Below, in pieces: positions 5,449-54,400 of a DNA stretch of 64,000 bases. How positions within the stretch are numbered: position 1 is the stretch's first letter; each line of letters begins with the position of its first letter. This stretch comes from an uncultured Eubacteriales bacterium (GTDB lineage Bacteria; Bacillota; Clostridia; UBA1381; UMGS1253), in NCBI GenBank assembly GCA_902492065.1, contig CABUKE010000001.1:257347-321346 (forward strand), read 5' to 3'. The translations under genes were made by a program, and so were the position numbers. Under the pieces are notes generated by a model, which was given only the letters and a program-made list of their open reading frames with translations, made no database searches and was not told where the DNA came from.

Positions 5449-5496
5449 ACTGTCACCGTAACCTTTCCGCCGGAGCGCCGGCACTGCTTGCCTGTT

Positions 5497-5525
5497 TCTC
5501 AAAAGGGCAGAGGCTGGCTCTGCCC
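5497..5525 (-). terminator. terminator-like hairpin in the gltB3-glnA spacer (candidate attenuator)
   Basis: The minus-strand RNA reads GGGCAGAG-CCAGC-CUCUGCCC followed by UUUUGAG. An upstream GGCAG could compete for the CUGCC 3' arm. Confidence 0.45.
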
Positions 5526-5564
5526 GCTCAATGCTGTATCCTGCCGTTTCTATTGTACCATGTC

Positions 5565-6287: not shown

Positions 6288-6342
6288 TGTACTTCACTCC
6301 TTCAAAAAAGGATGTTTCGTCCGCACGGATTACGACATAGCC

Positions 6343-7617: not shown

Positions 7618-7770
7618 AGCACATTACTCCATTCCGCCGCCGATGGTCGCGGCATACGATTTTTCTTTTGACACGCCCTCCATCCGGGGCGCAAAGCAGA
7701 AAGTAAATATATAGACGGCCGTACGCGGCCGAAATATGCCCGGCGGCGACGGAAGTTTTTCCTCTTTGGA

Positions 7771-27216: not shown

Positions 27217-27247
27217 ACTATTATTGGTCCTCCTTTCCTAACCAGTA

Positions 27248-36708: not shown

Positions 36709-38847
36709 ATGATTACAGTCAAGGATGGAATGTTTCATTTGCAGGGGAAAAACATCAGTTATATTATGGAAATTTCAAAGGAAGGAAACCTGTATCACCG
36801 CTATTTCGGCAGAAAGGTTCATTATTTGCCCGCGCCTTATCAGCCTTGGACACCGGTCTGGGGCTGTTACGACGCAAAGACTGGGATTAGCCTGGAGGCC
36901 GCGCCGCAGGAGTACCCTTCCTACGGCGTGACAGATTTGAAAACGCCGGCCTATGTGGTCAAAAATCCGCAGGGCAACACGCTTTGTACACCCACGTACC
37001 GCTCTCATACCATCTATGAGGGGAAGAGGCCGCTGCCCGGACTCCCTGCTGTATATGACAATGCGCATACGGCACGCACGCTGGAGATCGTAATGGAGGA
37101 CTCTCTGGCGGGTGTTCGCCTTATCCACAGCTATTCGGTATTTAAAGAGTTCGACATCGTGTGCCGGAGCACGCGCATTGAAAATATGGGCGAGGGGACG
37201 CTTTTGTTACAGGCGGCTGGGTCGGCGTGCTTAGAGCTGCCGGATAGCGGCTATGAGGCCGTCTATCTGGCCGGGCGCTGGTCGCAGGAGCGGAGGCCAA
37301 TCAAGGTTCCAATCCAGCAGGGAAAGGTCGAGGTTTCCAATGCACGCGGCGGGAGCGGGCACCAGATCAATCCGTTTGTAATGCTCGCCAAACAAGGCGC
37401 GACGGAAACATCCGGCGAGGTCTACGGGTTTGCGCTCGTTTACAGCGGCGACCATGCGACGGTTGCAGAGGAGTCGCAGTATGGCACGACCCGCGTCATT
37501 ATGGGAATCAATCCGCAGGGGTTCGAGGCGGAAGTGCGCGATTCCTTCCAGACGCCGGAGTGCATTTTGGCCTATAGTCCGACCGGATTTGGATGTCTGT
37601 CGCGGACGTACCACGACGTATTCCGCAATAACCTTTGCCGCGGCAAGTGGAAGAACAAAAGACGGCCTATTGTCGTAAATAACTGGGAGGCGACAGTGTA
37701 TGACTTTGACGAAGAAAAGCTGCTCGCCATTGTGGAAAAGGCCGGCCAGACCGGAATTGAAATGTTTGTGCTCGACGATGGCTGGTTCGGAAAGCGAAAC
37801 GATGAGAACTGTTCGCTGGGTGACTGGGTTGTAAACAAGCAGAAGCTGCCGAGTGGTATCAAGGGCTTTGCCGAAAAGGTGAAGAGTCGTGGCATGGCGT
37901 TTGGGCTTTGGTTTGAGCCGGAGATGATCAGCCCGGACAGCGATTTGTACCGCGCGCACCCGGACTGGGCCATACACGCAGCAGGACGGGAGCCGGCGCA
38001 GTCGCGCTATCAGCTTGTGCTTGACCTGACGCGGCCGGAGGTCTGCGATTATGTGATTGAGAGCGTCAGCGCCGTACTGCGGGAGGCGGATATCTCCTAT
38101 GTAAAATGGGACATGAACCGGCATATCAGCGACATGCCGTATCCCGGCTATAACCATGCATATATTCTGGGCCTGTACCGCATTATGGAAACGCTGACGG
38201 AGCGCTTCCCGGATGTACTGTTTGAGAGCTGCAGCGGGGGAGGCGGCCGGTTCGACGCAGGGATGTTATATTACATGCCGCAGGTATGGACCAGCGACAA
38301 CACCGACGCGATCGACCGGTGCAGGATTCAGTACGGGACGTCGTTTGCTTATCCGCCCGCGGTGATGGCAGCACATGTGTCCTCGGCAGAGAGCAACCGG
38401 CACAAAGCATCGTTTAAGACGCGCGCGGACGTTGCATATGGCGCGGTGTTCGGCTATGAGCTCGATTTGACAAAGTTGACGGAGACAGAACTGGAAGAAA
38501 TCCGGGGGCAAATCGAATTTTATAAGCAGATTCAGCCGCTTGTCATGCAGGGCGACTTTTACCGCCTACGCAGCCCGTTTGAAGGGGATTTGTGTGCGTG
38601 GGAGATTGCCGCAAAGGATGGGAGCGAGGCGTTTGCCTGTGCGGTCGTTTCTTTGGCGGATTTGTATACAGCAAAGCCGGTTCTGCGGTTTGCCGGGCTG
38701 GATGCGGACGCAGTGTATCGGGATACGCAGACGGGCCGGCTTTACGGCGGCGACTTGTTGATGTACATGGGGCTGGAGGTGGAGCTTCCGCCGGAGGACG
38801 CTGCATCTGTGATTTATCATTTTGTAAAACAGGAGTCTAAAGAATGA
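36709..38847 (+). CDS. alpha-galactosidase (GH36)
   Basis: At 712 aa, it carries VNNWEATVYDFDEEKL, FVLDDGWFGKRNDE, YVKWDMNR and FESCSGGGGRFD, which are GH36 AgaA-type motifs. Confidence 0.9.
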   Translation: MITVKDGMFHLQGKNISYIMEISKEGNLYHRYFGRKVHYLPAPYQPWTPVWGCYDAKTGISLEAAPQEYPSYGVTDLKTPAYVVKNPQGNTLCTPTYRSHTIYEGKRPLPGLPAVYDNAHTARTLEIVMEDSLAGVRLIHSYSVFKEFDIVCRSTRIENMGEGTLLLQAAGSACLELPDSGYEAVYLAGRWSQERRPIKVPIQQGKVEVSNARGGSGHQINPFVMLAKQGATETSGEVYGFALVYSGDHATVAEESQYGTTRVIMGINPQGFEAEVRDSFQTPECILAYSPTGFGCLSRTYHDVFRNNLCRGKWKNKRRPIVVNNWEATVYDFDEEKLLAIVEKAGQTGIEMFVLDDGWFGKRNDENCSLGDWVVNKQKLPSGIKGFAEKVKSRGMAFGLWFEPEMISPDSDLYRAHPDWAIHAAGREPAQSRYQLVLDLTRPEVCDYVIESVSAVLREADISYVKWDMNRHISDMPYPGYNHAYILGLYRIMETLTERFPDVLFESCSGGGGRFDAGMLYYMPQVWTSDNTDAIDRCRIQYGTSFAYPPAVMAAHVSSAESNRHKASFKTRADVAYGAVFGYELDLTKLTETELEEIRGQIEFYKQIQPLVMQGDFYRLRSPFEGDLCAWEIAAKDGSEAFACAVVSLADLYTAKPVLRFAGLDADAVYRDTQTGRLYGGDLLMYMGLEVELPPEDAASVIYHFVKQESKE

Positions 38848-40775
38848 AGAAAGTAGTATCAATTTGTATTGCATTATTAACTTTTATAGGTACATGTCCG
38901 GCCTATGCCTATGAGCTGCCGAGCAGCTTCTGGCCGATCAACGACCAGTATGCGGCGGCGCTGGAAGCGGGCGACGACTGGCGCATCATTGATTTGGCTT
39001 CCCAGTCGCTTGCCATTATCCAAAATGAGCCGGATAACGAACAGACAACGTCCATCCGCGCAACGCGGCTCGAGCAGATGGCGCTTGCATATGCGCGCCA
39101 GCAGATGTATCCAGAAGCGGCGGATACATTCCGGACCTATATCCCCTATGCTGAGAAGATGGGCTGGGCAGATGCGGTAAAGATTGCACAGGCAAAAGTG
39201 CTGCAATATACGCCGGAGGTGTCAATGTATACGCCGACGCAGGAAACAGTACGCGACTATAACGCCCGGCTTGAGCCGGATAAGGGTGTGTACTACGGCG
39301 TTACGTCGGACAGTGAGATGCGCGACAGTCTGCCGCAGGCGTCTATGGCTTTGCTGTATTTGGAATTTGGCGACACGTATTTTGACTGGATTGAGCATGT
39401 GCTGTCTACTGCACAGGAGGAAGGGCGCGCCGTCGAGCTTGCATGGAATGTACCGGGCCAAGGCAGCCAAATTCCTGACATTGTCAACCAGACGGCCTAC
39501 ATTGAGCAGGTGCTTGCCATGCTCAATAAATATCCGGATGTTCCAATCTTTATCCGCTTTGGCGCAGAGGTGGATATCTGGGGCGACCGGGCCGATCCGA
39601 CGCAGTTTATCGAGGCGTTTCGCCATGTGGCAAATTTGGTCCATGAAAAAACGACCAACACTGCTATGGTATGGAGCGTTAATGCAGTATCCACGTGGGA
39701 TATCCATATGGAGGACTACTATCCCGGCGATGAATACGTCGACTGGGTTGGCGTGTCGCTGTATTTGAAAAAGTATTTTTTAGGCCGCAATGACTGGCCG
39801 GAGGCGGAAAAGTTTAACGAGGTTGTATTCCTGTGCGGCGACAACGCCGACCCGGTTAAGAGTCTTGACGAAGTGATACGCAAGTTTGGGGACAGAAAGC
39901 CAATCATGCTTGCCGAGTCCGGCGCCTCGCACTACAGCCGCTCGCTGGGGGAGGATACGTCCGCCTTTGCACTCAGTCACCTGCGCGAGCTTTACTATAA
40001 CGTGCCGATGGTATACCCGCAGGTGAAGCTGATTGCTTATTTTGATAAGGTGATTGAGTCTGAAACAGAGGAGTATGCGCTCTCCACATCGCCACTGTTG
40101 GCACAGGAGTATAAAAGTCTGGTACAGCTTCCGCACTTTATCCAAAAGGACGGCGGAAGCCCGGTTGCCTACAAAAAGCTGGCAGACAGCGTTTCTCTGG
40201 ATAATTCGACTATGACGGTCCAATCCTATGTACACCTTTACCGTACCGACGAGGCGCGAGTCGACTACTATATCGACGGCGTATGGGCCGGGCGTTCGGA
40301 GCAGATGCCCTATACGTGTACGCTGGATTTCAGCTCTTTTGGCCCCGGCACGCATGCGGTTACGGCTGTGGCGGAATATAACGGTGGAACGAAACAGGCG
40401 GCCGGTTCGGGCACGGTAACAGTACAGCCGGCAATAACTCTGTATGTCAACGGACAGCAGCAGGAAACCGACACGGCCCCCATGCTCGTAAACGAACGTA
40501 CCTTTGTGCCGATTCGTGTTGTGTCGGAAGCACTGGGCGCACAGGTTGGCTGGGATGAAGCCACGCAGACCGTTACGCTGACACGGAGCGGAGATACAAT
40601 CTCTTTGCAGATTGGGAGCAATGTCCTTACAAAAAATGGCGCAGAGACGCCGCTTGACGCAATGCCCTTTTTGGAAGGGGACCGGACAATGGTGCCTGTC
40701 AGGGCGATTTCGGAGGCATTTTCCGCCGCTGTGGAGTGGAATGCAGAAACAAGAAGTGTCTGGATTGCGCTTTAA
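38844..40775 (+). CDS. secreted GH26-like (clan GH-A) glycosidase with a C-terminal copper-amine-oxidase-N-like wall-associated domain
   Basis: The signal peptide is MKKVVSICIALLTFIGTCPAYA. The core has IFIRFGAEVDIWG (acid/base-like E), PGDEYVDWVGVSLY and KPIMLAESGASH (nucleophile-like E). The C-terminus has NERTFVPIRVVSEALGAQVGWD...GDRTMVPVRAISEAFSAAVEWN. An ATGA overlap joins it to the GH36 gene. Confidence 0.6.
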   Translation: MKKVVSICIALLTFIGTCPAYAYELPSSFWPINDQYAAALEAGDDWRIIDLASQSLAIIQNEPDNEQTTSIRATRLEQMALAYARQQMYPEAADTFRTYIPYAEKMGWADAVKIAQAKVLQYTPEVSMYTPTQETVRDYNARLEPDKGVYYGVTSDSEMRDSLPQASMALLYLEFGDTYFDWIEHVLSTAQEEGRAVELAWNVPGQGSQIPDIVNQTAYIEQVLAMLNKYPDVPIFIRFGAEVDIWGDRADPTQFIEAFRHVANLVHEKTTNTAMVWSVNAVSTWDIHMEDYYPGDEYVDWVGVSLYLKKYFLGRNDWPEAEKFNEVVFLCGDNADPVKSLDEVIRKFGDRKPIMLAESGASHYSRSLGEDTSAFALSHLRELYYNVPMVYPQVKLIAYFDKVIESETEEYALSTSPLLAQEYKSLVQLPHFIQKDGGSPVAYKKLADSVSLDNSTMTVQSYVHLYRTDEARVDYYIDGVWAGRSEQMPYTCTLDFSSFGPGTHAVTAVAEYNGGTKQAAGSGTVTVQPAITLYVNGQQQETDTAPMLVNERTFVPIRVVSEALGAQVGWDEATQTVTLTRSGDTISLQIGSNVLTKNGAETPLDAMPFLEGDRTMVPVRAISEAFSAAVEWNAETRSVWIAL

Positions 40776-41900: not shown

Positions 41901-42378
41901 ATATGTCCTCCAAGTCTGCGTCCAGTTCTGGTGAGGCTGATCCACTTCGAGCGGGAGCTTCGTTTGCATCCAGCAAAAGCCCGAACCGGATCAGAGTGAC
42001 CAATATGACAAGAAGTCCCATCAACACCTCGGTATCTGCCGCAAAGGTATCGCCGCCTGCCGCCTCTGTCTGTACTGCGATACCCTGCGCCTGTTTAGAA
42101 AATCCGATCAGGGCATAGAAAGTTAGGATAGACGCGACAACTTGCATGACAAAGGGGTCTGGGTATTCACCCGCGTCAAAATCCCCGGGAGAAAAAGCCT
42201 CCGCAAGCAGCAAGCCGCGCTGGGTTTGCAGCGTTTGGAAACGAAGTATGATTCCCACCAGAATAAATAGCAGATTATACTCCGCTTTATCAAGCAGCGC
42301 AAGCTGGGTGCGGATTTCCTCCGGAAGCTGGTCAAAATAATACGAGTCAAGTTGATTTTTACTTTTGATTCTATTCAC
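41899..42378 (-). CDS. hypothetical membrane protein
   Basis: The 159-aa ORF has about 3 hydrophobic helices and an acidic tail. It uses a GTG start crowded against a GGGGAGG sequence, so the start is uncertain. I recognise no family. Confidence 0.45.
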   Translation of the reverse strand: MNRIKSKNQLDSYYFDQLPEEIRTQLALLDKAEYNLLFILVGIILRFQTLQTQRGLLLAEAFSPGDFDAGEYPDPFVMQVVASILTFYALIGFSKQAQGIAVQTEAAGGDTFAADTEVLMGLLVILVTLIRFGLLLDANEAPARSGSASPELDADLEDI

Positions 42379-42515
42379 CTCCCCGGCATATCAAGTTTCT
42401 ATCATTTTATTATATGTTGTTTGTGGCTGTTTTGTTTCTGAGACGGCATAAGGCCATCTGTTTTTGAACTACAAATGCGGGCAAGTGAAAAAAGCAGGAA
42501 AAAGATGAAAAGCCC

Positions 42516-42544
42516 TTGAAAATTACAGATTTTTGTAGTAAAAT
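42516..42544 (+). promoter_or_regulatory. sigma-A type promoter upstream of the cobalamin riboswitch
   Basis: TTGAAA (42516-42521), a 17-nt spacer, then TAAAAT (42539-42544). Confidence 0.45.
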
Positions 42545-42599
42545 AACAATCTGAAAAATATATCATGAATTCGTACAATGTGTCGTATATTGCGTATGG

Positions 42600-42775
42600 C
42601 AATATATGGTGAAAAGGGAATCAGGTGAGAAACCTGAACGGTACTGCCGCTGTATGCGTCAAAGTTTTATGTTTGACGGTGAAAGCCGGTCACTGGGAAA
42701 CTGGGAAGGCAAAGCATAAAACGCAGAGTACGTAGCTCTATAAGGCGCAAGTCAGAAGACCTGCATTGATACTGC
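42600..42775 (+). promoter_or_regulatory. cobalamin (B12) riboswitch aptamer
   Basis: The conserved blocks occur in the canonical order. They are AAAAGGGAAUCAGGUGAGAAACCUGAACGGUACUGCCGCUGUA, then GGUCACUGGGAAACUGGGAAGGC, then the B12 box GCAAGUCAGAAGACCUGC. Confidence 0.9.
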
Positions 42776-42818
42776 ACCGTGTTTACCCGGCCCGGGTATA
42801 GGTGCGGTAGCTTTTTTG
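42771..42818 (+). terminator. riboswitch expression-platform terminator
   Basis: ACUGCACC-GUGUUU-ACCCGG-C-CCGGGU-AUA-GGUGCGGU followed by AGCUUUUUUG. Its 5' arm abuts the B12 box. Confidence 0.7.
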
Positions 42819-42850
42819 TGTTGCAAAAAAGTGCGAGGTCGCAGGAACAC

Positions 42851-42890
42851 AGCTGTGGCGTAAGATAAATCTTATGCCGCAGCTTTTTTG
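42851..42890 (+). terminator. second terminator-like hairpin in the same leader
   Basis: GCUGUGGCGUAAGA-UAAA-UCUUAUGCCGCAGC (two G-U pairs) followed by UUUUUUG. It lies 77 nt before the giant ORF's ATG. Confidence 0.6.
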
Positions 42891-42966
42891 TTGGCAATAT
42901 GGGAGGCCGAGGCATGTAAGCAAATTTATAAACAAAAATTAAACTGTAAAAGGAAGGGTGAAACAT

Positions 42967-45900
42967 ATGCGTACAAATAAAACAAATCGTTTCTTTGCTT
43001 TGCTACTGACCGCCATGATGGTATTTAGCCTGCTTCCTGCCAATGCAGGCGCGGCCGTTCCTGACGATGTAGGACAATCGGAAAACGCGGGGCCGCAGGT
43101 TCAGGAGCCTGTGAATCAGGATGGAGTGTATCAAATATCCTCCGGCAGCGAGCTTGCGTGGATAGCGCAGGAGGTCAACGCGGGAAGGGCGGCGGATTGT
43201 AGCGCTGTGCTTACCGCGGACATCGACCTGGGCGGACAAAGCTGGATTCCAATTGGAAAAGGAAGCAGCTATGCCTGGAGGGGAAGCTTTGATGGACAAG
43301 GCCACACCATATCCGGACTGTATGTCGATTCAACAAACTATGACCAGGGGCTTTTCGGCTACATAAACGGAGGAACGGTTCAAAATATTACTGTAAAAGG
43401 GCAAGTGACGGGCGGCGGCAGCGGCAACAGCGGCGGCGTCGGCGGCATTGCCGGAACGCTGAACAGTTCATACAGCAGTGAAAGCGCTATCAGAAACTGT
43501 ATCAGTTATGTCACTGTGTCCGGCGGAAATAACGTCGGCGGCATTGTGGGACTGGTGACAGGCTCTTACGGCAAGACGATTGCATGCTGTGCAAACTATG
43601 GGACAGTTTCCGGCAATAACAGTGTCGGCGGTCTGGTTGGTAATTTTTATTACAAAGGCCAATTAACGGACAGCTATAACCGCGGCGACATTACGGCAAA
43701 CGTGAGCAAAGCGGGCGGCCTTGTCGGCTACATGAGCGACAGCGGCGCTTCCGTTTTCAACTGTTATACGACAGGGACTGTGCTCGGGACTAATTCTGCG
43801 CCTGCAATTGGACAGATGGAGCGCGGGACGGCAGAAAATGTATATTATCTTGACACCCTGGGCAGCGACGCCAACGCTGTTCCAAAACAGGAAGCGGAAA
43901 TGAAGGGTGCGGCATTCCCGGGCCTTTTGGGGGAAGCATTCTCACAGGATATGGCCATACCGATAAACGACGGTTATCCGATTTTTGCTTTTCAGGATAC
44001 TACGCCGAAGTATGATGTTACCGTTACGGTTTCTCCGGCGGATGCAAACTTTGCATTGTCCGATGATACCGGAGCGGCAATTGCTGGGGAAAAAGAAGAA
44101 CTTGAGCAGTCCGCCGTTTGGCGTTTCAGCCTGCGGGACGGGAGCTACCACTATACTGCATCTGCTTTTGGAAAGGTTGAGCAGAGTGGCGAGTTGACGG
44201 TGAGCGGACAGGCTGTTACCCAGGAGATCGCACTATTGGACGCTCCGGCAAAGGAAATAACATTTGACATCACCTTTGAAGACGGCAATCCCGATGGGGT
44301 AACGCCATCCATTATAGTGACGTACGACAAAGACGGCAGGGAAATTGCTGCGGCAGACGGGGTCTATACCCTGCCCTACGGCGATTATCATTATACGGTA
44401 AAGGCCAAAGGGTACAGCAAGATGGCGGGGGCATTTGCGGTTACTGCTGACAGTACTGCTATATCCGTATTGTTAACGCCGTCTGCCGCATGGGACGGCG
44501 AAAGCATGGAGCCGGTCGCGCCGAATGCGGAAGGTATTTATGAGATTGGCTCGGGTGAGGAGCTTGCCTGGTTTGCAGCGCAGGTAAACAGCGGGACAGG
44601 AAAAGAGTACCGCGTCCTGCTCACAGATGATATTGATTTGGGGGAAAACCCGTGGACGCCCATTGGAACGGGCCTTACCTATAATGTTGATTTCTTTAGC
44701 GGGAGCTTTGACGGAGCGGGCCATACGATTACCGGATTAAATGTTTCCGGCGCGGAATACGCCGGGTTGTTCGGCTATATCAAGGGGGCTTCACTTTCTC
44801 CGGCAGAGGTCAAAAACATTGTCGTACAGGGCAGCGTAAATGGAACCGAAAATGCAGGCGGCATTACAGGCCGCGCTGATAACGCGGTAATTGAAAACTG
44901 TGGCAATGAGGCTGCTGTGTCGGGCAAGGAAGCAGGCGGAATCGTCGGACGGCAGCATAGCTACGGTTCTCCCATTACCATAACAGGCTGCTACAACATT
45001 GGTGCTATAACGGCACAGTCCCGGGCCGGCGGTATTCTGGGCTATGTCAATGACACAGCAGAAATCAGCAATTGCTATAATACGGGCGCGATTGAAAGCA
45101 GCGATTATGCCGGCGGCCTCCGGGGGATGGGCGGCTCGTTTGCGGGCGACATTACAAACTGTTATAATGCTGCCGCTGTCAGTGGCAAGACTGCCGGCGC
45201 CCTTGTTGCAGGCAGCGGAAGCCTTGAAAACTGCTACTACTTAAGCGGCGGTGCGAGTGATACAAACGGCAGTACGGAAGTGTCCGCAGATGAGCTGAAA
45301 AACCTGGCGCAGCGGCTTAACGCAGGGGCTGTTCCCGCTTTGTGGGTAAGCGGCGGTACGCAAAACAACGGCTATCCTATCTTGGAGTGGCAAAAGGAAG
45401 AAGCTGGCGAAACAGGCATCCCGCTGAACAAAGTGACAAATGCTGTTTGGCAAACGGATTTGGAAACCGGCCTGCTCACCGGCGTGGCTACATGGGATGC
45501 TGTGCCAAATGCGGAAAGCTATACGGTTATCCTTTGGGATTACTGGGCGGAAGAAACCGAATACGGGTCAGTAAGTGGTATGTCGGCGCGTAAAACGGTT
45601 ACTGGTGTTACAGAAACCCAATACGACTTTACACAGGATATTGAAGAGAATGGGGCAAGCTGGTATTACTTTACTGTGACGCCCATTGCGGAGGAAAACA
45701 GTGGGTACATCAGCGGTGAGCTACCCATATGGGATGAAGAAACACAGGAGGGCAACCTCTACGATTATTTGGACTATTCCAATGACGATATTTGTTACCG
45801 CTACTATGAGCAACTCGACCAGCCGACCGGACTCAGTTGGTCAGGTCCGTTTGCCCGGTGGGAGTTTGTGGACGGCGCGGCAGGTTATCTTGTCACGATC

Positions 45901-48900
45901 TATCGGTTAGATGATACAAATGCCATCTATTATACGGCAAGCAGCCTTGCAGATGCGGCCACAAACCAGGTCGACTGTCAGAACTATTTCGCGGTTGGAG
46001 GCCGCTATGTATTCACAGTGACAGCCCTTTCGGAGGAATATCTGCTCACAGGTGTGGGGGACAAAAACAGTCCGGCATCCCGCCTCAGCAGCGACGAGAG
46101 TAATGGCGGCGCGGAATACGGTATTTACACAGCCGTTTCTGTTCCGGATCCGGAGCCTGGCGACGAGGTGGACCGGACGGACTGGATTGCCATTTCTACA
46201 GCAGAACAGTGGGTGGAATTGGCCAATGTAGAGGATATCCCCGTCGGAGATGGCGACAACAGCAGTCAACAGAGCGTTGCATGGGGAAAGAAATACTATT
46301 TAACGGCAGACCTTGATTTTTCCAGCCTTTCATCGGCTGACCAAGTCCGTACCAAGTCGATTGGCAACACAACCAACCGCTTTACCGGTATCATGGACGG
46401 AAACGGGCACAAAATTACCGGTCTTACGCTCAGCAACAATGATTCGGGATTGTTTGCCTATATCGGCGCTGCGGGGCAAGTGTACGACCTTACCATTGAA
46501 GATGCGAACGTCCTGTTTTCCGACAATGCGGCGGTGCTGGCGCTTTATAATTATGGAACCATCCGCGACTGCGCCGTTATCAATTGCAATATCACGGCCG
46601 ATACCGGGGCCGTGCTGGGCGGTATGGTGAGCCGTAACTACGGCGTTGTACGCGAGAGCTTTGTACAGGGGGGAACGCTGACTTCAAACAGTAGCACGGC
46701 CACAGGCCACGCTGGATTTGTCGGGTCAAATGAATCCGGCGGCCTGATTGAACGCTGCTGGACTTCCATGGATGTACATACCAGCAGCGAGTACGCGGGT
46801 GGCTTTGTGGGCTTGGGCTATGGCGGCACAATCCGGGACTGCTTTGCTTTGGGAGATGTTTCGGCGCGGAGCTATTCCGGCGGTTTTGCGGGACGCTCCG
46901 TCTATGACGGGAACCGTTATGAAAACTGCTATGCGGCTGGCACGGTCGCCGTATCCGGAGAGGTGGGGCATGGTTTTATTGGCGGCAGCAGTCCGGACTC
47001 CGCTTTTCAGCCCGATTTATCAAAGGAAATTAAGAATTGTTATTACAACAGCGCATCGCCGGCCGACGGCTATGCAGCCGGGAAGAGCCTGGAGGAGATG
47101 CGCAGCGCGGCATTTTTGACCGCACTTGGCGGTACGCAGGGCGTTTGGACACAGTCGCCGGACAAAAACAATGGCCTCCCATATTTGACCGACGTTCCGG
47201 CACCGGAGGGAACGCCGGTGGAAAGCATTACCGTTGAGATTGCGCTGGCAGTTTATGATAAGGAGACTTACACCTTCTCGCAGCTGGGAGAAACGGTATC
47301 GGTAACATTGGAAAGTAACGGCAACACGCGGATAACCGATTTGATGGATGCGGCGGCCTCCCAGGGGAAACTGACGTATACCTATGAAACGACGCCCTCG
47401 TTCGGACGCTATATCCACACCATCAATGGATATGCGGTGGAGGAGCCGGACGGCTGGATGTTTACCGTTAACGATAAACTTTCCAATTTGAGCGCATCTC
47501 TCGCTACGGTTCAGGACGGAGACCGTCTGCTGTGGTTTGAAGGAACAACGGAGAACCATTTCCAGGGTCCGGCATGGGACGAGCTTACAGGCGTTGAAGT
47601 CGAATGGGTGGATATTGGGACGGCAGAGGAGCTGTTACGGCTCGCGCAGAGCGCCGCTCCTGCGGATATGGAAAAGAATTACCGCCTTACAGCGGATATC
47701 GACTTAAACGGCGTTGATTTCAGCGGCATAGGGACTGATGCGCAGCCATTTGCCGGCATGTTTGACGGCCAGGGGCATACAATTTCCAACTTGTCCATGT
47801 CGGGCGGCGACAATGTTGGTTTCTTTGGCGTCATCAAAGGCGCGGTTGTTAAAAATTTGAATCTGGAAAACGCTGTTGTAAATGGCAGCGGCAAGAATAT
47901 AGGCACACTGGTAGGTTGGGCGCAGGTGGAACTGGATCAGGAAAATATAGCAGAAAATTTGGCAAACCTGATCGGCAATTGCACCGTGTCCGGGACAGTG
48001 TCGGGCACAAACACCGTAGGAGGGCTTGTCGGCCTTAACGACGGAAAAGAGGACCCGGACACGCTGTTTTCCATTGCGTCTTCTATTGATAAGTGTACAG
48101 CGGATGTAGAAGTGCTCGGCACGGGCAAGGGCGGCAACGTCGGCGGCCTGGTTGGTGAGAACAACGGCGTTATCACAAAGAGTGTGGCTGTGGGCGATGT
48201 AAAGGCAGAGGGCGCTTACGGCGTGGGCGGCTTTGCTGGGGAATCCTACGGAGACATTTATGACAGCCATGCAGACGGTGACGTTACCGGGCAGAGCACG
48301 GTCGGCGGTTTTGCCGGAGCCTCGAGTGGAATTCTGAAAAATAGTTACAGCTTGGGAAGTGTTATGGGCGAGTCCTATACGGGCGGTTTTGCCGGCTCCA
48401 TCAGCATGGCAGAGTATGTAATTGGAGCAGGGCAGGTAACAGTTACCGGAAGCAGCACGACCGGCTACAATGGCGGCTTTGCAGGACATATGAGCGGATG
48501 GATTACCGGCCCTGAAAACCAGATTGCAATCAAAGACGCTTTTGCAAATTGTACCCAGACAGACGGTTCCCTGATCGGGATTATCGGGAATACGGTGGAT
48601 TATGCCTCGGAGGAACAGCAATCCGTGTTGTTGGATATGACACTGAAAACAGTCGGAGAAACAGCCGATAAGCTGTATGAGATGTTTGGCGTAAATATGA
48701 AAGTTTCCGAGAGTTTGATGGCGGAAGCGGAAAAATACGCAGACAGTTTGGCTTCTTCACAGAGCGGGGGAGAGATTTCGCTTTTAAAGGAGAACCAGAC
48801 CGCTTCGGAAGGGATTTCCGTCAGCTATGAAGTGTCGGGCGACTATCTGACCGGCGGAAGCAGCTTGACAATAGCAAAGGCAAACGATACTTCAGCGACC

Positions 48901-51036
48901 TTGTCCGTTCCGGTGACAATTGTTCTTAGCGATACGGAAAGCGGAACCGTTTACCGCAAGGAGGCGCAGGTACTGCTGTCTGTAACACCCGCACAGCGCG
49001 AGAAACTGATGGACAGCATAGCGGGCGGATACACGGAAAGCAAGGATAGCTGGAGCGTCATGGATATGGCCGTTTACGAGACCATTGACGGAAAGACCTA
49101 TAGTGTGACGGATGCGGCGAAGCAAAACGTCTTGAATTTGCTGATTGGTGAAGCGGACAGCGAAACGGCGACAGTAAGCGACCGTGCGAGGATTGAGATT
49201 GTTCTCAGGGCTATGGGAATTGACAGCAGCAGGCTGTATCCTGTTAACAGCAACGACGCAATCAATAATGCAGAAATTTTGTCGGAGATGGACCTTACAT
49301 CAGGCGGATATTACGCCGCACCGTGGCTGCTGCTGGCCGATATGCAGGGCAATCTGTCCCTTTCGGAAGAACAAATCCAGACGCTTATTGTGATGCTGTA
49401 TGACAACATGGGAGACGGACTGTTCGGCTATACTTATGGCGGCGTCAGCTATTCCGACCCCGATACGGCAGGCGTAGCTTTGGCGGCGCTGGCGCGCTTT
49501 ACAGAAACGGATGAGCATGCAAAAGCTGTTGTAGATAAAATCCTGTCCGCTCTGCCAGATGCCATGAACAACACAGGCTCCTTTGGAAGCGTAAACTCCG
49601 ATGCAATGGTTCTCATTGGTTTGCTCGCCAATGGGATAGAACCGGCAAGCATAAAAGTTGAGTCGGGCGCGACGATTGTAGACGGCATGCTCTCCTATGT
49701 AAATGTTGACACGAACAAATTCCAATTTAGCGGAGTGGATAACGACCTTGCTACGGAGCAGGGCTTCCGGGCGTTGATTGCGTTAAGTAAAGCAAATGGA
49801 ACGGCATACAACATTTATGATTTCAGCGGCAATGCGGTAACGCCGGGGCGGGCGACCGGGGACGGGGAAACGGAAGTCCCAGATGAACCAAGCCCAGGCA
49901 ACCCCGACATTACTGTGAGCGTTACCATTAAAGCGGATAAAGGCTATTGGCTGCGGGATAAATCGGTTCGTGTAAAACGTGGTTCCACCGTATACCATGC
50001 CTTTATTAAGGCGCTTGAGGGCAGCGGTATTACGCAGGTGGGTGCAGAGGACGGCTATGTAAAGTCCATGAGCAAAGATGGGAAAACACTGGCGGAGTTT
50101 TCCGACGGACCGCAGTCCGGCTGGTTGTATCAAGTAAACGATGTTCTTCCGGACGTTGGGCTGACCGCGTACCAGATTAAAAACGGCGATGCAATTGAGT
50201 TTTACTATACGGCGGATTGGACGTCGGAGCCGGGCATTGGCGGCGGAGACAATGCCAGCAGCACGAAATATACCGTTACCTTTGACACACAGGGCGGCAG
50301 TCTGATTGATAAAGTTACTGTGTCTAAAAACGGCACTGTAACAAAACCAGCTGACCCGACAAAAGAAGGGTATACATTTGGCGGCTGGTTTACGGATAAA
50401 GGCTGCACACTTGCGTATGACTTTTCATCTAAAGTTACGAAGAATCTTACTTTATATGCAAAATGGGAAAAAACATCAGAGGAACCGGACAAGCTTCCCT
50501 TTGAAGATGTAGACGAGACCGACTGGTTCTACGAAGCGGTAAAGTATGCCTATGAAAACGGACTGTTTAATGGAACAGACGACACCACGTTTGCTCCTGA
50601 CGAGCAGATGACGCGTGCCATGTTGGTTGCTGTGCTCTACCGCATAGAGGGTGAACCCGCGGCCGGACAGGAAAACAGCTTTCAAGATGTAGCCGCAGAC
50701 GCATATTATGCCGGTGCGGCGGCATGGGCAAACGAAAATGGGATTGTGCTCGGCTACGGCGAAAATACATTTGGCCCGGATGATTTCATTTCGCGGGAAC
50801 AGCTTGCGGCGATATTGCAGCGGTATACAGCGTATAAAAATGTTACAGTAGAGGAAACAGGTGATTTGTCGCAGTTTGTGGACGCGGGTGAGATTTCGCC
50901 CTGGGCACAGGACAGCATAGAATGGGCTGTTGGGGCGGAACTTTTGTCCGGAAAGGACGGGGGAAGGCTCGACCCGCAAGGCGGCACTACCCGTGCAGAA
51001 GTTGCGACAATCCTACAGAGATTTTTAGAAAAGTAA
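42967..51036 (+). CDS. giant (2,689 aa) SLH-anchored cell-surface protein with four GLUG-repeat blocks, Ig/FN3-like spacers, two DUF4430 (transcobalamin-like beta) domains, an alpha/alpha-toroid domain, a Listeria-Bacteroides repeat and three SLH domains
   Basis: The signal peptide is MRTNKTNRFFALLLTAMMVFSLLPANAGA. GLUG-type repeats are present (GLFGYI.G.V.N..V.G.V.G....GGI.G). DUF4430-like segments lie at ~47218-47550 and ~49906-50225, and a helical toroid at ~48975-49830. YTVTFDTQGGSLID...GYTFGGWFTD...LYAKW lies at ~50266-50470. The three SLH domains are FEDVDETDWFYEAVKYAYENGLFNG, FQDVAADAYYAGAAAWANENGIVLG and FVDAGEISPWAQDSIEWAVGAELLSG. I preferred the ATG at 42967 (AGGAAGGG RBS 8 nt upstream) over the GTG at 42958. 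Confidence 0.9.
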   Translation: MRTNKTNRFFALLLTAMMVFSLLPANAGAAVPDDVGQSENAGPQVQEPVNQDGVYQISSGSELAWIAQEVNAGRAADCSAVLTADIDLGGQSWIPIGKGSSYAWRGSFDGQGHTISGLYVDSTNYDQGLFGYINGGTVQNITVKGQVTGGGSGNSGGVGGIAGTLNSSYSSESAIRNCISYVTVSGGNNVGGIVGLVTGSYGKTIACCANYGTVSGNNSVGGLVGNFYYKGQLTDSYNRGDITANVSKAGGLVGYMSDSGASVFNCYTTGTVLGTNSAPAIGQMERGTAENVYYLDTLGSDANAVPKQEAEMKGAAFPGLLGEAFSQDMAIPINDGYPIFAFQDTTPKYDVTVTVSPADANFALSDDTGAAIAGEKEELEQSAVWRFSLRDGSYHYTASAFGKVEQSGELTVSGQAVTQEIALLDAPAKEITFDITFEDGNPDGVTPSIIVTYDKDGREIAAADGVYTLPYGDYHYTVKAKGYSKMAGAFAVTADSTAISVLLTPSAAWDGESMEPVAPNAEGIYEIGSGEELAWFAAQVNSGTGKEYRVLLTDDIDLGENPWTPIGTGLTYNVDFFSGSFDGAGHTITGLNVSGAEYAGLFGYIKGASLSPAEVKNIVVQGSVNGTENAGGITGRADNAVIENCGNEAAVSGKEAGGIVGRQHSYGSPITITGCYNIGAITAQSRAGGILGYVNDTAEISNCYNTGAIESSDYAGGLRGMGGSFAGDITNCYNAAAVSGKTAGALVAGSGSLENCYYLSGGASDTNGSTEVSADELKNLAQRLNAGAVPALWVSGGTQNNGYPILEWQKEEAGETGIPLNKVTNAVWQTDLETGLLTGVATWDAVPNAESYTVILWDYWAEETEYGSVSGMSARKTVTGVTETQYDFTQDIEENGASWYYFTVTPIAEENSGYISGELPIWDEETQEGNLYDYLDYSNDDICYRYYEQLDQPTGLSWSGPFARWEFVDGAAGYLVTIYRLDDTNAIYYTASSLADAATNQVDCQNYFAVGGRYVFTVTALSEEYLLTGVGDKNSPASRLSSDESNGGAEYGIYTAVSVPDPEPGDEVDRTDWIAISTAEQWVELANVEDIPVGDGDNSSQQSVAWGKKYYLTADLDFSSLSSADQVRTKSIGNTTNRFTGIMDGNGHKITGLTLSNNDSGLFAYIGAAGQVYDLTIEDANVLFSDNAAVLALYNYGTIRDCAVINCNITADTGAVLGGMVSRNYGVVRESFVQGGTLTSNSSTATGHAGFVGSNESGGLIERCWTSMDVHTSSEYAGGFVGLGYGGTIRDCFALGDVSARSYSGGFAGRSVYDGNRYENCYAAGTVAVSGEVGHGFIGGSSPDSAFQPDLSKEIKNCYYNSASPADGYAAGKSLEEMRSAAFLTALGGTQGVWTQSPDKNNGLPYLTDVPAPEGTPVESITVEIALAVYDKETYTFSQLGETVSVTLESNGNTRITDLMDAAASQGKLTYTYETTPSFGRYIHTINGYAVEEPDGWMFTVNDKLSNLSASLATVQDGDRLLWFEGTTENHFQGPAWDELTGVEVEWVDIGTAEELLRLAQSAAPADMEKNYRLTADIDLNGVDFSGIGTDAQPFAGMFDGQGHTISNLSMSGGDNVGFFGVIKGAVVKNLNLENAVVNGSGKNIGTLVGWAQVELDQENIAENLANLIGNCTVSGTVSGTNTVGGLVGLNDGKEDPDTLFSIASSIDKCTADVEVLGTGKGGNVGGLVGENNGVITKSVAVGDVKAEGAYGVGGFAGESYGDIYDSHADGDVTGQSTVGGFAGASSGILKNSYSLGSVMGESYTGGFAGSISMAEYVIGAGQVTVTGSSTTGYNGGFAGHMSGWITGPENQIAIKDAFANCTQTDGSLIGIIGNTVDYASEEQQSVLLDMTLKTVGETADKLYEMFGVNMKVSESLMAEAEKYADSLASSQSGGEISLLKENQTASEGISVSYEVSGDYLTGGSSLTIAKANDTSATLSVPVTIVLSDTESGTVYRKEAQVLLSVTPAQREKLMDSIAGGYTESKDSWSVMDMAVYETIDGKTYSVTDAAKQNVLNLLIGEADSETATVSDRARIEIVLRAMGIDSSRLYPVNSNDAINNAEILSEMDLTSGGYYAAPWLLLADMQGNLSLSEEQIQTLIVMLYDNMGDGLFGYTYGGVSYSDPDTAGVALAALARFTETDEHAKAVVDKILSALPDAMNNTGSFGSVNSDAMVLIGLLANGIEPASIKVESGATIVDGMLSYVNVDTNKFQFSGVDNDLATEQGFRALIALSKANGTAYNIYDFSGNAVTPGRATGDGETEVPDEPSPGNPDITVSVTIKADKGYWLRDKSVRVKRGSTVYHAFIKALEGSGITQVGAEDGYVKSMSKDGKTLAEFSDGPQSGWLYQVNDVLPDVGLTAYQIKNGDAIEFYYTADWTSEPGIGGGDNASSTKYTVTFDTQGGSLIDKVTVSKNGTVTKPADPTKEGYTFGGWFTDKGCTLAYDFSSKVTKNLTLYAKWEKTSEEPDKLPFEDVDETDWFYEAVKYAYENGLFNGTDDTTFAPDEQMTRAMLVAVLYRIEGEPAAGQENSFQDVAADAYYAGAAAWANENGIVLGYGENTFGPDDFISREQLAAILQRYTAYKNVTVEETGDLSQFVDAGEISPWAQDSIEWAVGAELLSGKDGGRLDPQGGTTRAEVATILQRFLEK
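50266..51033 (+). repeat. C-terminal anchoring cassette (Listeria-Bacteroides repeat plus 3 SLH), copy A of an inverted diverged pair
   Basis: It is paralogous to 51469-52266 on the opposite strand. In the repeat domain, 46 of 66 residues are identical in my by-eye alignment. The SLH part is roughly half identical. Confidence 0.75.
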
Positions 51037-51196
51037 AGAAATATCAATACGATTCACGGAGCCGCTATCAACAACGGTGGAAACCATGAAAATAGACCGG
51101 CAAAGAATACGGCGGCACTACTGGCTCTCACTCGAAGAGGAAAACTGCAAGATGGAGTGGGACGAGGAAATTACGCAATTTGTTCCTCAAAATTAA

Positions 51197-51228
51197 AAAG
51201 GCTGGCATTCGCTAGCCTTTTCTTTTAT
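51197..51228 (+). terminator. intrinsic terminator downstream of giant gene 1
   Basis: AAGGCTGGC-ATTC-GCTAGCCTT followed by TTCTTTTAT. Confidence 0.6.
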
Positions 51229-51375
51229 ACTTGAAAACGGAGGGGAAAATAAATGCAAGCCTCTCTTTGGATTTTTTGGTTAATCAGTGATAACCAATAT
51301 CCGTTAACCGTGTTATTCCCTAAAATACTGCCTGTTTGTATCCGATATACTGCTATTATGGCAGTGGTAGGTTAT

Positions 51376-51465: not shown

Positions 51466-54400
51466 CTATTTCAAATTTTCAAAAAACCGTTGCAGCATTG
51501 CTGCCATTTCCGCACGCGTCGCATTGCCCTGTGGATCGAGCTGACTATTCTCCTTGCCGGAAAGCAGCCCATATCCAACCGCCCACGACACGTTCTCTTT
51601 TGCCCAATCGGAAATCTGTGCTTCATCAGCAAATTTTGTCAAATCGCCGCGTGCACTTGTGTCAATGCTCTTATAGTTTGCGTACCGCTCCAGAATTGCG
51701 GCAATTTCTTCTCGTGTAATCGTCTGATCCGGTGCAAACTCAGTATCTGAGTACCCCTTCACGATACCCTCGCTTGCTGCCCAACGGACAGCCTCTCCAT
51801 AATATGCTGCTTGGTCAACATCGTCAAACATCATGAGATAGTTTACGACTGGCTTTTCTTCTGCACGCCAGAGTACCGTCACCAGCATCCCGCGGGAGAG
51901 TGTTCCATCCGGCGCAAACTCCGTTTCGCTTACGCCGCTGAAAAGTCCGTTTTCTGTTGCATATTTCACTGCATCATAGAACCATGCTTGCTCGGAAACG
52001 TCGCTGTACGGGTTCTTCCAGTCGTCTGGGTCAACCGGTTCCTCTGGGATAGTAGGTTCTATGCTCCACTTTGCATACAGCGTGATGTCCGACGTTACTT
52101 TTGTATCAAAATCGTATGCCGTTTTGCACGCCGCATCTGTAAACCAACCTTCAAAAGTATACCCCGCCCGGGTCGGCGCAGCCGGCTTGGGAACCACACC
52201 GTTTTTAATCACGCGGACACTGCCGATTTTGCTTCCGCCCTGCGTATCAAAGGTTACGGTATAGCGTGTCGCTACAGTTTCGCCACCGCCAGACGACGGA
52301 CGGTATACCGTTACGGTGATATCCGCTGCCTCTACCGGAGCGTAATTGGAATCCGCCGGCGTAAAGACAGCCATTTCCTTATAGAACCCTTCTTCTGCCA
52401 TCTCGCGGTCATTCTTCCAAGACCATGTGCCTGCCAACTCTGTCCCGTCGAGGCCCGTCACAACGCCGCCGGAAAGGGTGGACGCAGAGAGCTGTTCGCC
52501 GACTTGGATGCGGCTTGCTTTCGGCGCTGTTACAAGGGTCGCCGTCGCAGAGGTGACAGCATATGCGACTTCATTTGACCGAACAATTTCATAGCTTTCC
52601 GTACCTGCAAATACTGCCTCAAAGGTGTAGTCTGCTACTTCCGGCGCATTCAGCGTCAGTGTAGCCACGCCGCCCGCAGTGTCGGCCGTGCCGAGCAGCA
52701 CCGGCGTTTCGCCTGCATTATTATAGAACTGTATTGTGTTACCGTTTGGACTGCTTACACCCTCAAGCGTAGCTGTCAGCGTTACATCAGCGCCATATAC
52801 GGACGTTTCTGCTGGAGAAGCTGCAAGCGTGATGGTTTGTAACCGGCTGAGAATCATCTGTTTCTGGCCGTCTGCTGTATCAATTTCTTTTACTTCAAAG
52901 TTTCCGCTGTTGTTGATAAAGTTACTTGCCGCCGCCTTGCCACTTGCGTAAGGAGCGGTAAACGCCTGTCCAAACGTAAAATTACGGCTGTTGATATAGA
53001 TACCGATTTTTGCCGTTTCGTCAAGGCCGTTTTCACCGATTGTCAGCGTGTTTCCGTTCAGCGTATCTATCCAGAGGTCACAGTCGCCGTCCATTCCGGT
53101 ATTTCCGGTAATGACAGCAGTTCCGGAAACCTCGACAAAGCTGCCGTTAGCCGCGTCGACGCCTGCCTGCGGATTGTCAGAGGTGTTACCGGTGATGGAG
53201 CCACCGTTCATGATAAACTTAGCGTTGCGCATGAGTTTTACACCACCGGGGCTGGTGCCGCCGTGATTTTTTGTAATTGTGCCGCCATTCATAATAAAGG
53301 TGCCGCCGCCCATGACCTGAACGGCGCTGCGGCTGCCGTCACTCTGGTGTCCGGTAACGGTGCCGGTCTTTGCGGCGCTGCTGTCCTCAAGCTGTAAAGT
53401 CGCGCTGTCATTGATATACAAGAAGGTGTCGTTGGTCTGGGAGGCTGTCAGCGTATAGCCCGCCAGATCGAACACGAGCGTTTTTTCGCTCGGTACGCTA
53501 AGGGAGGTATCAAGCTGTGCGTCGCCCAGCAGTCTGGCATAAACAGGCTCCGCACTGCTGCCGATTGCAGTCCGTAAATCGGCAAATGTACCGGAATTGC
53601 CGTATGCTTCACCATCTGTTCCCCATTCAACAACATTGCTTATCTGGGCATGGAAATATTTGGTCTGTGCCGCAAGGCCCGCAGTTTCCGAACTGTAATA
53701 CGCAATTGCAGCCGATACCGCATCATCTCCTGATGCTACCTTATAAAGCTTACCCGCAGCGGGAGATACAGTGAATCCCTGTCTGCCAAATGCCGCCGCT
53801 GAAACAATTTCTACGTCGGCCTGATTGCTGATGAGAACGGGCAGTGTGCAGTAAATACCGTTGGTCGTTGCACCCTGTACGTTCACCTTTGCCTCATCCT
53901 GAATGGTCAGCCCTACATTGCTCTGTGCAAAAATACCATATGCACCATTTGTTGCAATATTAACCTGCGCCTGCTCTTTCAAGATGATATTGTCTTTTTT
54001 GCACCAGATACCGCCGCCGTTTGTATCATGAATCCGAATGACTGCATTTCCACCAATGCTGATACCGGACGCAGAATTATAAATTGCATAGTTTTCCAGT
54101 CCGGAAATATCCACTTCTGCGTTTCCGTCGATCACCATATTCGCAAGGCCGTAAGGATAAAGTCCGTACTTTCCCTTTGTAATGGTTACCTTCGCGTTAT
54201 CCCCGATTACAATGCCGTTCGTATCCTTGTGCTCGCCGGTATTGTTACCGCTCATGATGGCCGTTTGTTCTTTACCAGCAGCTGCAGTTACTTGAGCATT
54301 CTCTTTAATTGTAATTAGTCCGCAATTATTAATGGCATTATGCTGTTCGCTTGTTGCTTTAACGACTGCATTGCCCTGGACGGTAAGATTCGTACCGTTT

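Follow-up and report, generated by a model that had tools for sequence, protein, structure and literature searches.

A cobalamin riboswitch upstream of a giant S-layer-homology protein with a predicted transcobalamin-like module in an uncultured Eubacteriales bacterium

Introduction

Why should a vitamin B12 riboswitch precede the gene for a giant surface protein? The question is raised by a 64,000-nucleotide stretch of DNA from an uncultured Eubacteriales bacterium (GenBank assembly GCA_902492065.1, contig CABUKE010000001.1; the whole stretch is hereafter the window, and positions are given in its numbering). Here, a sequence-only reading had described a cobalamin riboswitch in control of a gene for a wall-anchored protein of 2,689 amino acids (aa), and had considered this adhesin-like product to be no standard member of the B12 regulon. 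The surprise is largely resolved by the present analysis, as the protein is predicted to carry, near its C-terminus, the fold that animals use for B12 carriage, and across species the riboswitch accompanies this module rather than the giant scaffold in which it is embedded.

Competition for corrinoids shapes gut communities, and the capture of these compounds at the cell surface is understood only in the Bacteroidota, where it involves BtuG, BtuH and BtuJ. All three are lipoproteins of the Gram-negative outer membrane, have folds unrelated to that of the module described here, and are encoded in B12-riboswitch-regulated loci. Among characterised systems, these Bacteroides binders come nearest to the function proposed below. 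Their likeness to the giant protein is one of analogy and concerns the proposed role only, namely corrinoid capture ahead of a membrane transporter, and a Pfam scan of the giant protein gave no match to the BtuJ-type domain DUF4465. Whether Gram-positive bacteria possess cobamide binders associated with the cell wall was called 'entirely uncharacterized' in a 2026 review (PMC13616437), and full-text literature searches found no paper that joins cobalamin riboswitches with S-layer-homology (SLH) proteins. Together with its relatives, found in at least 158 species, the locus represents a concrete Gram-positive candidate with regulatory support.

The riboswitch and its promoter

A scan of the whole window with cmscan and Rfam 15, run at gathering thresholds, returned a single match, the Cobalamin family RF00174, which scored 75.0 bits (gathering score 31.5; E = 1.2e-16) with an untruncated alignment over model positions 1-189 of 189 (Table 1). 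The five core blocks by which the riboswitch had first been recognised are each present once and in canonical order, within positions 42614-42764. The Rfam result and the blocks thus bear out the earlier identification of a plus-strand cobalamin riboswitch with all of its hallmarks, and place the 5' end of the aptamer approximately 40 nucleotides (nt) upstream of the start coordinate given at the time. Judged by these features, the RNA is an ordinary RF00174 member, a class-I-type cobalamin riboswitch that would be expected to bind its ligand. With the class I, adenosylcobalamin-type members of the family, which are marked by a GCCACUG-like J6/3 region and the B12 box, it shares the B12 box and a location in the 5' leader of a plausible B12-acquisition gene. 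Similarly, the aptamer is followed by intrinsic terminator hairpins, as is usual for RF00174 riboswitches in the Bacillota, but the leader differs from these in having two terminator-like hairpins in series (T1 and T2) and a conserved motif before the second.

The candidate promoter would start transcription at approximately position 42551, just 5' of the aptamer, and the remaining elements follow in cis, with T1 beginning 2 nt past the 3' strand of P1, T2 standing before the ribosome-binding site and the gene lying on the same strand. In four strain variants (L168-L171) no position of the leader between the candidate promoter and the start codon differs, the aptamer included, and two substitutions are found further upstream; variants of the same species therefore provide no covariation. 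An exact-pattern scan of metagenome contigs for the aptamer of the window gave no match.

An open reading frame (ORF) of 99 aa on the minus strand (42667-42966) overlaps the 3' part of the aptamer, both terminators and the leader down to the start codon. It was treated as spurious and is almost certainly no gene, and automatic annotation could call it and thereby mask the leader.

The giant protein and its transcobalamin-like module

The gene behind the leader encodes a secreted protein, an identical copy of which occurs in public assemblies, and in which Pfam recognises only the families SLH, Flg_new, DUF4430 and Glug. Approximately 75% of the chain is a GLUG/immunoglobulin (Ig)-like scaffold, with four GLUG-rich blocks (about aa 50-340, 515-810, 1075-1400 and 1540-1870) separated by Ig/fibronectin type III-like spacers. 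No LPXTG motif was found in the protein, and anchoring is therefore attributed to its three SLH domains, so the earlier description of the protein as wall-anchored stands in the sense of non-covalent attachment and falls in the covalent sense. A terminator-like hairpin and then a convergent gene follow the coding region, from which we conclude that the giant gene is monocistronic and, as had been stated, the only gene downstream of the riboswitch. Likewise, the reported lack of btuFCD and cbi genes was upheld when the 30 larger ORFs of the window were scanned with Pfam, and no ECF (energy-coupling factor) gene was found among them either.

Two copies of DUF4430 provide the first link to B12. 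In vertebrate transcobalamins, DUF4430 (PF14478) forms the C-terminal domain (PMC4350170), and within the SLBB beta-grasp superfamily it makes up the 'transcobalamin-like clade' (PMC1796856). The copy in the middle of the chain is solitary, while the second copy is preceded by approximately 300 residues that have no Pfam match, and whose homologues bear the database labels 'terpene cyclase/mutase' or 'prenyltransferase/squalene oxidase repeat', i.e. as alpha/alpha toroids. Residues 2005-2418 were aligned with 27 homologues and submitted to AlphaFold2 (AF2) structure prediction, which gave a model with a mean pLDDT (predicted local distance difference test) of 93.4, consisting of an alpha/alpha toroid and a beta domain. 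When this model was compared with the Protein Data Bank (PDB) using Foldseek, the top 15 matches were all transcobalamin, haptocorrin or intrinsic factor (approximately 450 columns; E 5.6e-12 to 2e-8), followed by the isolated beta domain of human transcobalamin (5np4/5no0; template-modelling (TM) scores of 0.71-0.76) and, later in the list, squalene-hopene cyclase at E of approximately 1e-3. The model also has the two-domain fold of the PF01122 family, an alpha6/alpha6 toroid followed by a beta-grasp domain.

With the vertebrate carriers transcobalamin, intrinsic factor and haptocorrin (2bb5, 2pmv, 4kki) the module therefore has in common the two-domain architecture and a PF14478 domain at the C-terminus, and these carriers are its best PDB matches. 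In contrast, its toroid has no detectable sequence similarity to theirs (12-16% identity in structural alignments), the domains are oriented differently in the ligand-free model, and the bacterial module forms part of a wall-anchored giant while the carriers are soluble. As modelled, the giant protein resembles transcobalamin in fold and architecture, but by sequence it does not belong to the eukaryotic family.

Table 1 Features of the leader, the giant gene and its product, in window coordinates.
Feature	Position	Strand	Evidence and remarks
Candidate sigma-70-type promoter, TTGAAA-17-TAAAAT	42516..42544	+	10/12 hexamer matches; best site in 42000-43200; consensus match only
Cobalamin riboswitch aptamer (RF00174)	42561..42782	+	Covariance-model match; B12 box 42749-42764; P1 3' strand GCAUUG 42763-42768
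Conserved block AAGGGAA	42614-42620	+	
Conserved block GGTGAGAAACCTG	42624-42636	+	
Conserved block CTGCCGCTGTA	42644-42654	+	
Conserved block GTCACTGGGAAACTGGGAAGGC	42689-42710	+	
B12 box AAGTCAGAAGACCTGC	42749-42764	+	
T1, terminator-like hairpin	42770..42817	+	9-bp outer helix 42770-42778/42801-42809 and 6-bp inner helix; dG -22.4 kcal/mol
Small hairpin UGCG/CGCA with 'CGCAG' motif	42832..42844	+	Counterpart of UUGYG-N-CRCAG-AAAAAC in related leaders; just 5' of T2
T2, intrinsic-terminator-like hairpin with U6	42851..42890	+	15 bp; dG about -25; hairpin 42851-42884, U6 42885-42890
Shine-Dalgarno-like AGGAAGGGUG, then start codon	42951..42969	+	ATG at 42967; read from sequence
Gene for giant protein, 2,689 aa, secreted, SLH-anchored	42967..51036	+	ATG 42967, stop 51036; ORF and Pfam
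Sec-type signal peptide (MRTNKTNR, hydrophobic core, ANAGA)	42967..43053	+	Sequence inspection only
DUF4430 no. 1 (about aa 1457-1523), solitary, transcobalamin-beta-like, no adjoining toroid	47335..47535	+	PF14478; E 1.1e-10; 42.2 bits, cutoff 23.8
Alpha/alpha toroid domain (about aa 2005-2295) of transcobalamin-like module	48979..49851	+	AF2 model, Foldseek
DUF4430 no. 2 (about aa 2314-2415), beta domain of module	49906..50211	+	PF14478, Pfam match at about aa 2339-2415; E 5e-13; 49.7 bits, cutoff 23.8
Listeria-Bacteroides repeat (Flg_new)	50269..50463	+	Pfam
Three SLH domains	50497..51033	+	Pfam, E 3.8e-34, 3 stretches; profile matches to Sap and SbsB SLH structures
Terminator-like hairpin closing the transcription unit	51196..51231	+	Hairpin prediction; hairpin 51196-51221

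Homologous loci

If the riboswitch serves the module, the two should be found together elsewhere. In the protein database, most homologues of the module are proteins of 620-730 aa with the layout toroid, DUF4430 and SLH. Loci were fetched for five of these homologues. In L001, L002, L005, L006 and L007 an RF00174 match that reaches or exceeds the gathering score lies just ahead of the gene on its own strand, while the two loci of the fifth homologue, both from Evtepia (L003 and L004), have no match at that score, L003 showing a sub-threshold match of 20.9 bits. The survey was extended by scanning one genome per GTDB species, which located the module in no fewer than 158 species. According to their annotation these are without exception Clostridia-type Bacillota or uncultured gut bacteria. 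From them, 80 loci were kept. A covariance model of our own, built from four of the riboswitches, made 48 matches in the module loci, each of them upstream of the module gene and on its strand. After exclusion of 20 loci in which the ORF runs off the 5' end (proteins of >2,300 aa, among the closest relatives) and three with too little upstream sequence, 57 loci could be evaluated, and 44 of these have a riboswitch match, which lies less than 400 nt from the ORF in 34 cases and is separated from it by a gene of about 1.4-1.7 kb in the other 10. Nine of 11 re-checked matches, a set that included the weakest, are supported at the Rfam gathering score. The short 620-730-aa toroid, DUF4430 and SLH proteins have the riboswitch too, and it also stands directly upstream of giant relatives, in L020 (2,792 aa; 78.8 bits) and in L041 from Oscillospiraceae bacterium 50-16 (2,320 aa; 41.9 bits), both of whose proteins contain DUF4430 and SLH domains.

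The scaffold without the module behaves differently. A search for close homologues of the N-terminal part of the giant protein yielded only GLUG proteins with 29-52% identity, which for this reason were used as a negative control, comprising 80 metagenome loci picked solely by similarity to the GLUG N-terminal 520 aa. A riboswitch-like match occurs in one of the 80 (L088; 28.6 bits with our model and 23.6 bits with Rfam, below gathering), and the ORF of this locus (>2,180 aa) contains DUF4430. An internal control is provided by the window itself, where a convergent paralogue of 2,575 aa (51466-59193, minus strand) has the same GLUG/Flg_new/3xSLH scaffold, along with Big_3_5, and shares 54% identity with the giant protein over the C-terminal 270 aa, and where neither a DUF4430 domain (Pfam) nor a riboswitch (Rfam) was found for this gene. 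The comparison of 44/57 module loci with 1/80 GLUG loci indicates that the riboswitch tracks the transcobalamin-like module and not the giant scaffold. It also makes it very unlikely that the protein is in essence an adhesin or an enzyme-like surface scaffold (GLUG being found in IgA-protease-type proteins) for which B12 is an environmental cue and DUF4430 an accessory. Such a role would suit the share of GLUG/Ig-like sequence in the chain, the presence next door of a paralogous scaffold without DUF4430 and the frequency of GLUG N-terminal homologues in gut metagenomes, but it does not account for riboswitches that go with the DUF4430/toroid module even where the protein is short.

Some homologues also have transporter genes beside them. 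In L003/L004 and L006 the homologue heads an operon whose further genes encode a prenyltransferase-like or SLH protein, a small DUF4430 protein, CbiQ/EcfT and a fused ABC-ABC-ECF-S product. With its homologues under riboswitches and in some cases in CbiQ/ECF operons, the gene fits the uptake branch of the B12 regulon. Unusual are its size and its GLUG scaffold. The two DUF4430 domains, the toroid module and the riboswitches and ECF operons of its homologues argue against an unrelated adhesin-like product outside the regulon. The fused product that ends these operons (L003, 11403-13823; L006, 11580-14178) has 806-880 aa, with two ABC ATPase domains and an ECF S-component-like domain, i.e. an EcfA-EcfA'-S fusion.

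The expression platform

Between aptamer and start codon the leader is built around T1 and T2. The hairpin with a U6 tract that had been reported behind the aptamer was found as T1, in which the hairpin is followed by GC and then by U6 at 42812-42817; a simple terminator scanner missed it because of its internal loop. U-run hairpins occupy the same position, directly after ...GACCUGCnUUGAU, in leaders of related genes. T2, which the earlier description lacked, is the stronger of the two and lies 77 nt 5' of the start codon. At least one intrinsic-terminator-like hairpin follows the aptamer in 42 of 44 leaders (that of the window and 43 related ones), and the related leaders share an order of elements consisting of the aptamer ending in ...GACCUGCnUUGAU, a U-run hairpin, a variable hairpin, the motif UUGYG-N-CRCAG-AAAAAC and a terminator. 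The stem of T2, GCUGYGG...CCRCAGC, is conserved in related leaders with compensatory changes in 9 of 13 pairs, and both stem and upstream motif persist even though protein identity between the species is only about 40%. In its strict form the motif occurs 10 times in the module loci, each time just downstream of a riboswitch, and not once in 492 kb of control loci; the strict form has no match in the window, where the local copy departs from it. As the motif was found only in riboswitch leaders in these loci and the order of elements is shared, T2 is considered part of an extended, inherited expression platform and not a chance terminator. Relatives of T2 and its upstream motif are found in leaders L047, L049, L052, L053, L056, L063, L069, L071, L075, L076, L080, L083 and L085.

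How the aptamer would act on these hairpins was approached through pairing energies. Both T1 and T2 form in the thermodynamic minimum-energy fold of the leader, and the duplex energies of the T1 and T2 arms with the aptamer, calculated in search of an antiterminator, were no better than those of shuffled controls. The same holds for pairing of the upstream motif with the 5' arm of T2, which is a candidate only, and pairing of CRCAG with CUGYG was not significantly enriched when G-U pairs were allowed (mean run 6.4 versus 5.5 expected). For this reason a specific switching fold is not claimed. No partner for an L5-L13 kissing loop was evident in the loops of T1 or T2.

Two readings of the platform, other than a single B12-dependent one, have to be weighed against these results. 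One accepts the riboswitch as genuine but denies it control over the giant gene, the transcripts ending at T1 or T2 as an orphan leader or short stable RNA and the gene being served by its own B12-independent promoter past T2. Two strong terminator-like hairpins in series, both formed in the minimum-energy fold, and antiterminator pairings no better than chance would agree with this. However, a promoter-consensus scan of the plus strand in 42819-42966 revealed no promoter-like site, and the layout of aptamer, terminator(s) and ribosome-binding site recurs on the same strand before homologues in dozens of species, as for a cis-regulatory leader, with T2 and its motif occurring only behind riboswitches in the DNA examined. 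Because of the missing promoter-like site and the conserved layout, we regard an independent promoter as quite unlikely. The other is an ON or two-input switch, in which T2 and the motif would be a separate attenuator for a second signal, a protein or small ligand, and expression would need low B12 together with a second condition. The conservation of T2 stem and motif among such divergent species is unusual for a plain terminator and speaks for this possibility, but no Rfam family matches 42760-42980 (a relaxed Rfam scan gave miRNA-hairpin noise only), the motif is never found away from a riboswitch in the DNA examined, which fits one extended platform, and covariation statistics support no specific alternative fold; a second input is accordingly held to be highly improbable.

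Several smaller features of the leader were also recorded. The U6 tract of T1 can pair with an A6 tract 10 nt downstream (42810-42832, GCUUUUUUGUGUUGCAAAAAAGU, dG -8.8), and the U-run behind the first hairpin of related leaders also has an A-rich complement further downstream, a pairing that could modulate the efficiency of termination at T1. A possible leader peptide of 16 codons, running from GUG at 42819 to a stop in the loop of T2, was rejected, as its frame is not conserved in L085 and it lacks proper Shine-Dalgarno spacing. The upstream motif may bear a loose resemblance to the hairpin/terminator overlaps of protein-dependent antiterminators, which would suit a second input.

Proposed function

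The explanation we favour, with somewhat better than even confidence, is that the giant gene behind the riboswitch encodes a B12-repressed, wall-anchored corrinoid scavenger of a Gram-positive gut bacterium, a counterpart of BtuG/BtuH. The pairing of riboswitch and giant gene makes sense because the protein contains the transcobalamin-like module. The candidate promoter would transcribe the leader with its riboswitch, and control would probably be exerted by B12-dependent premature termination of transcription. When B12 is plentiful, the aptamer would be bound, one or both terminators would form, and the costly giant protein would not be made. When intracellular B12 is low, read-through would allow synthesis of the secreted protein, to be held on the Gram-positive wall by its three SLH domains. 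The transcobalamin-like module near the wall-proximal C-terminus, together with the solitary DUF4430 domain in mid-chain, may display corrinoid-binding sites, with the GLUG/Ig scaffold of approximately 2,000 aa acting as a stalk or adhesin portion by which they are projected or positioned. Captured corrinoids could then be passed to a membrane importer encoded elsewhere in the genome, which in related species would be of the ECF type and is encoded beside the homologue. Of this scheme, the analysis establishes the identity and position of the riboswitch, the terminators, the domains, the similarity in fold and the association across species, while ligand binding by RNA and protein, the OFF polarity and the transfer to a transporter are inferred.

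A role of this kind has been anticipated in part. Burroughs, Balaji, Iyer and Aravind predicted in 2007 that bacterial surface proteins combining a toroid with an SLBB domain scavenge B12 or its precursors (PMC1796856). The giant protein resembles the proteins they described in its signal peptide, in a toroid N-terminal to a DUF4430 beta-grasp domain and in the fusion to surface domains; paralogous solitary SLBB domains and relatives with CbiQ/CbiO-type transporters are further points in common, and the ECF neighbours of the relatives match the prediction that such proteins feed an ECF-type importer. The giant gene differs in that the module stands at the end of a protein of 2,689 aa, and riboswitch control, SLH anchoring and GLUG mega-fusions are not mentioned in that paper (PMC1796856).

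Several results weigh against a corrinoid scavenger. The CbiO/CbiQ-type (ECF) neighbourhood found in L003/L004 and L006 is not present around the monocistronic giant gene, and the Pfam scan of the 30 larger ORFs in the 64 kb revealed no transporter, cob/cbi gene or B12-dependent enzyme. Among the 57 evaluable loci, 13 have no riboswitch match; 12 of these were rescanned with Rfam and none reached the gathering score, while the thirteenth (L031, Evtepia) has only the sub-threshold match of 20.9 bits, in the copy scanned as L003. T2 is a strong terminator for which shuffle comparisons identified no significant antiterminator, and a constitutive T2 would keep transcripts that start at the riboswitch promoter from reaching the gene. 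With regard to the protein, whole-module TM-scores from Foldseek are low (0.35-0.45), which we attribute to the different inter-domain orientation in the ligand-free model. The giant protein has no match to PF01122 even at E <= 10, a phmmer search of the module against the PDB returned nothing meaningful and no chain of transcobalamin, intrinsic factor or haptocorrin, and a 28-homologue profile retrieved from the PDB SLH structures and squalene-hopene cyclase repeats but no transcobalamin. As searches by sequence failed, the link to transcobalamin rests on fold and architecture. Furthermore, a measurement of corrinoid binding exists for no member of the bacterial toroid and DUF4430 family.

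A system in Lactobacillus sakei, in which the ECF importer Lsa1836-1838 is encoded with Lsa1839 and Lsa1840 (bioRxiv 10.1101/864751), also points away from corrinoids. It is likewise Gram-positive and combines secreted transcobalamin-beta- and alpha-like proteins with an ECF importer, but there the alpha and beta parts are separate small proteins, no riboswitch is described, and the reported ligand is heme, a deletion mutant being reported to affect heme uptake. By analogy, this heme link is the main rival as far as the identity of the ligand is concerned. The ligand of the module might thus be heme, a corrinoid precursor (for example cobinamide) or some other tetrapyrrole or compound, instead of complete cobamides, with regulation by B12 being indirect. 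In agreement with this, the sequence of the toroid is nearer to prenyltransferase/terpene cyclase repeats than to transcobalamin, and the 2007 prediction itself allows for 'B12 or its precursors' (PMC1796856). However, a direct cobalamin riboswitch in approximately 75% of homologous loci is the signature of corrinoid-related genes, and the whole-module fold matches are the three B12 carriers, which together render a ligand of another kind unlikely; binding of cobinamide or other cobamides would still amount to corrinoid scavenging.

With the membership of the gene in the B12 regulon no longer surprising, the remaining interest of the locus is twofold. First, it is a well-supported, testable candidate for surface corrinoid capture in Gram-positive bacteria, with an unusually large, two-site architecture. 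The module comprises approximately 415 aa, is confidently modelled and is small enough to express, and cultured relatives are available in Oscillospiraceae bacterium 50-16, Neglectibacter caecimuris and Senimuribacter sp. DSM 106208. If corrinoid binding proves true, the module would bear on the proposed bacterial origin of the animal B12 carriers. Second, the dual-terminator leader is conserved, and its paired terminators with the motif between them constitute a tractable case of one aptamer driving a multi-hairpin platform.

A more ambitious proposal, which is tentative and in our view rather doubtful as a whole, would join these elements into a mode of Gram-positive extracellular B12 capture. 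The two corrinoid sites of a riboswitch-repressed SLH mega-protein, toroid plus beta domain close to the wall and, about 800 residues more distant from it, the beta domain that stands alone, would act as an intramolecular relay that passes cobamides inward to an ECF importer. In a previously undescribed extended expression platform, one aptamer would govern two successive terminators through a conserved hairpin cascade, and the protein would be a living representative of the Bacillota lineage proposed as the source of animal transcobalamin.

Regulation need not be uniform across the module family. The loci without a riboswitch match include L084 (Eubacterium nodatum ATCC 33099), L077-L079, L046, L060 and L074, so that another mode of regulation, or constitutive expression, may apply to a minority of the family.

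Other features of the window

Elsewhere in the window, in a 599-aa ORF (13050-14846, plus strand), an ammonium transporter (Amt) is joined to a P-II nitrogen-regulatory domain at the C-terminus. The ORF lies in a nitrogen-assimilation cluster that also comprises a type III glutamine synthetase gene (10809-12896) and genes resembling those of glutamate synthase (GOGAT; 5568-9684); a type I glutamine synthetase is encoded at 4150-5670 and an ANTAR response regulator at 3547-4113. Spo0A is also encoded in the window, and the PurA protein encoded there shares a 90%-identity cluster with 'Candidatus Aphodoplasma excrementigallinarum', a Clostridia metagenome-assembled genome with a species epithet that refers to chicken excreta. 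Several secreted carbohydrate-active proteins encoded at 25669-29131 (minus strand) and 38844-40772 (plus strand), among them a GH26-like enzyme and polysaccharide deacetylases that have F5/8 type C domains, carry domains of the 'copper amine oxidase N-terminal' type, which suggests that these domains are a second module for wall or surface association beside SLH.

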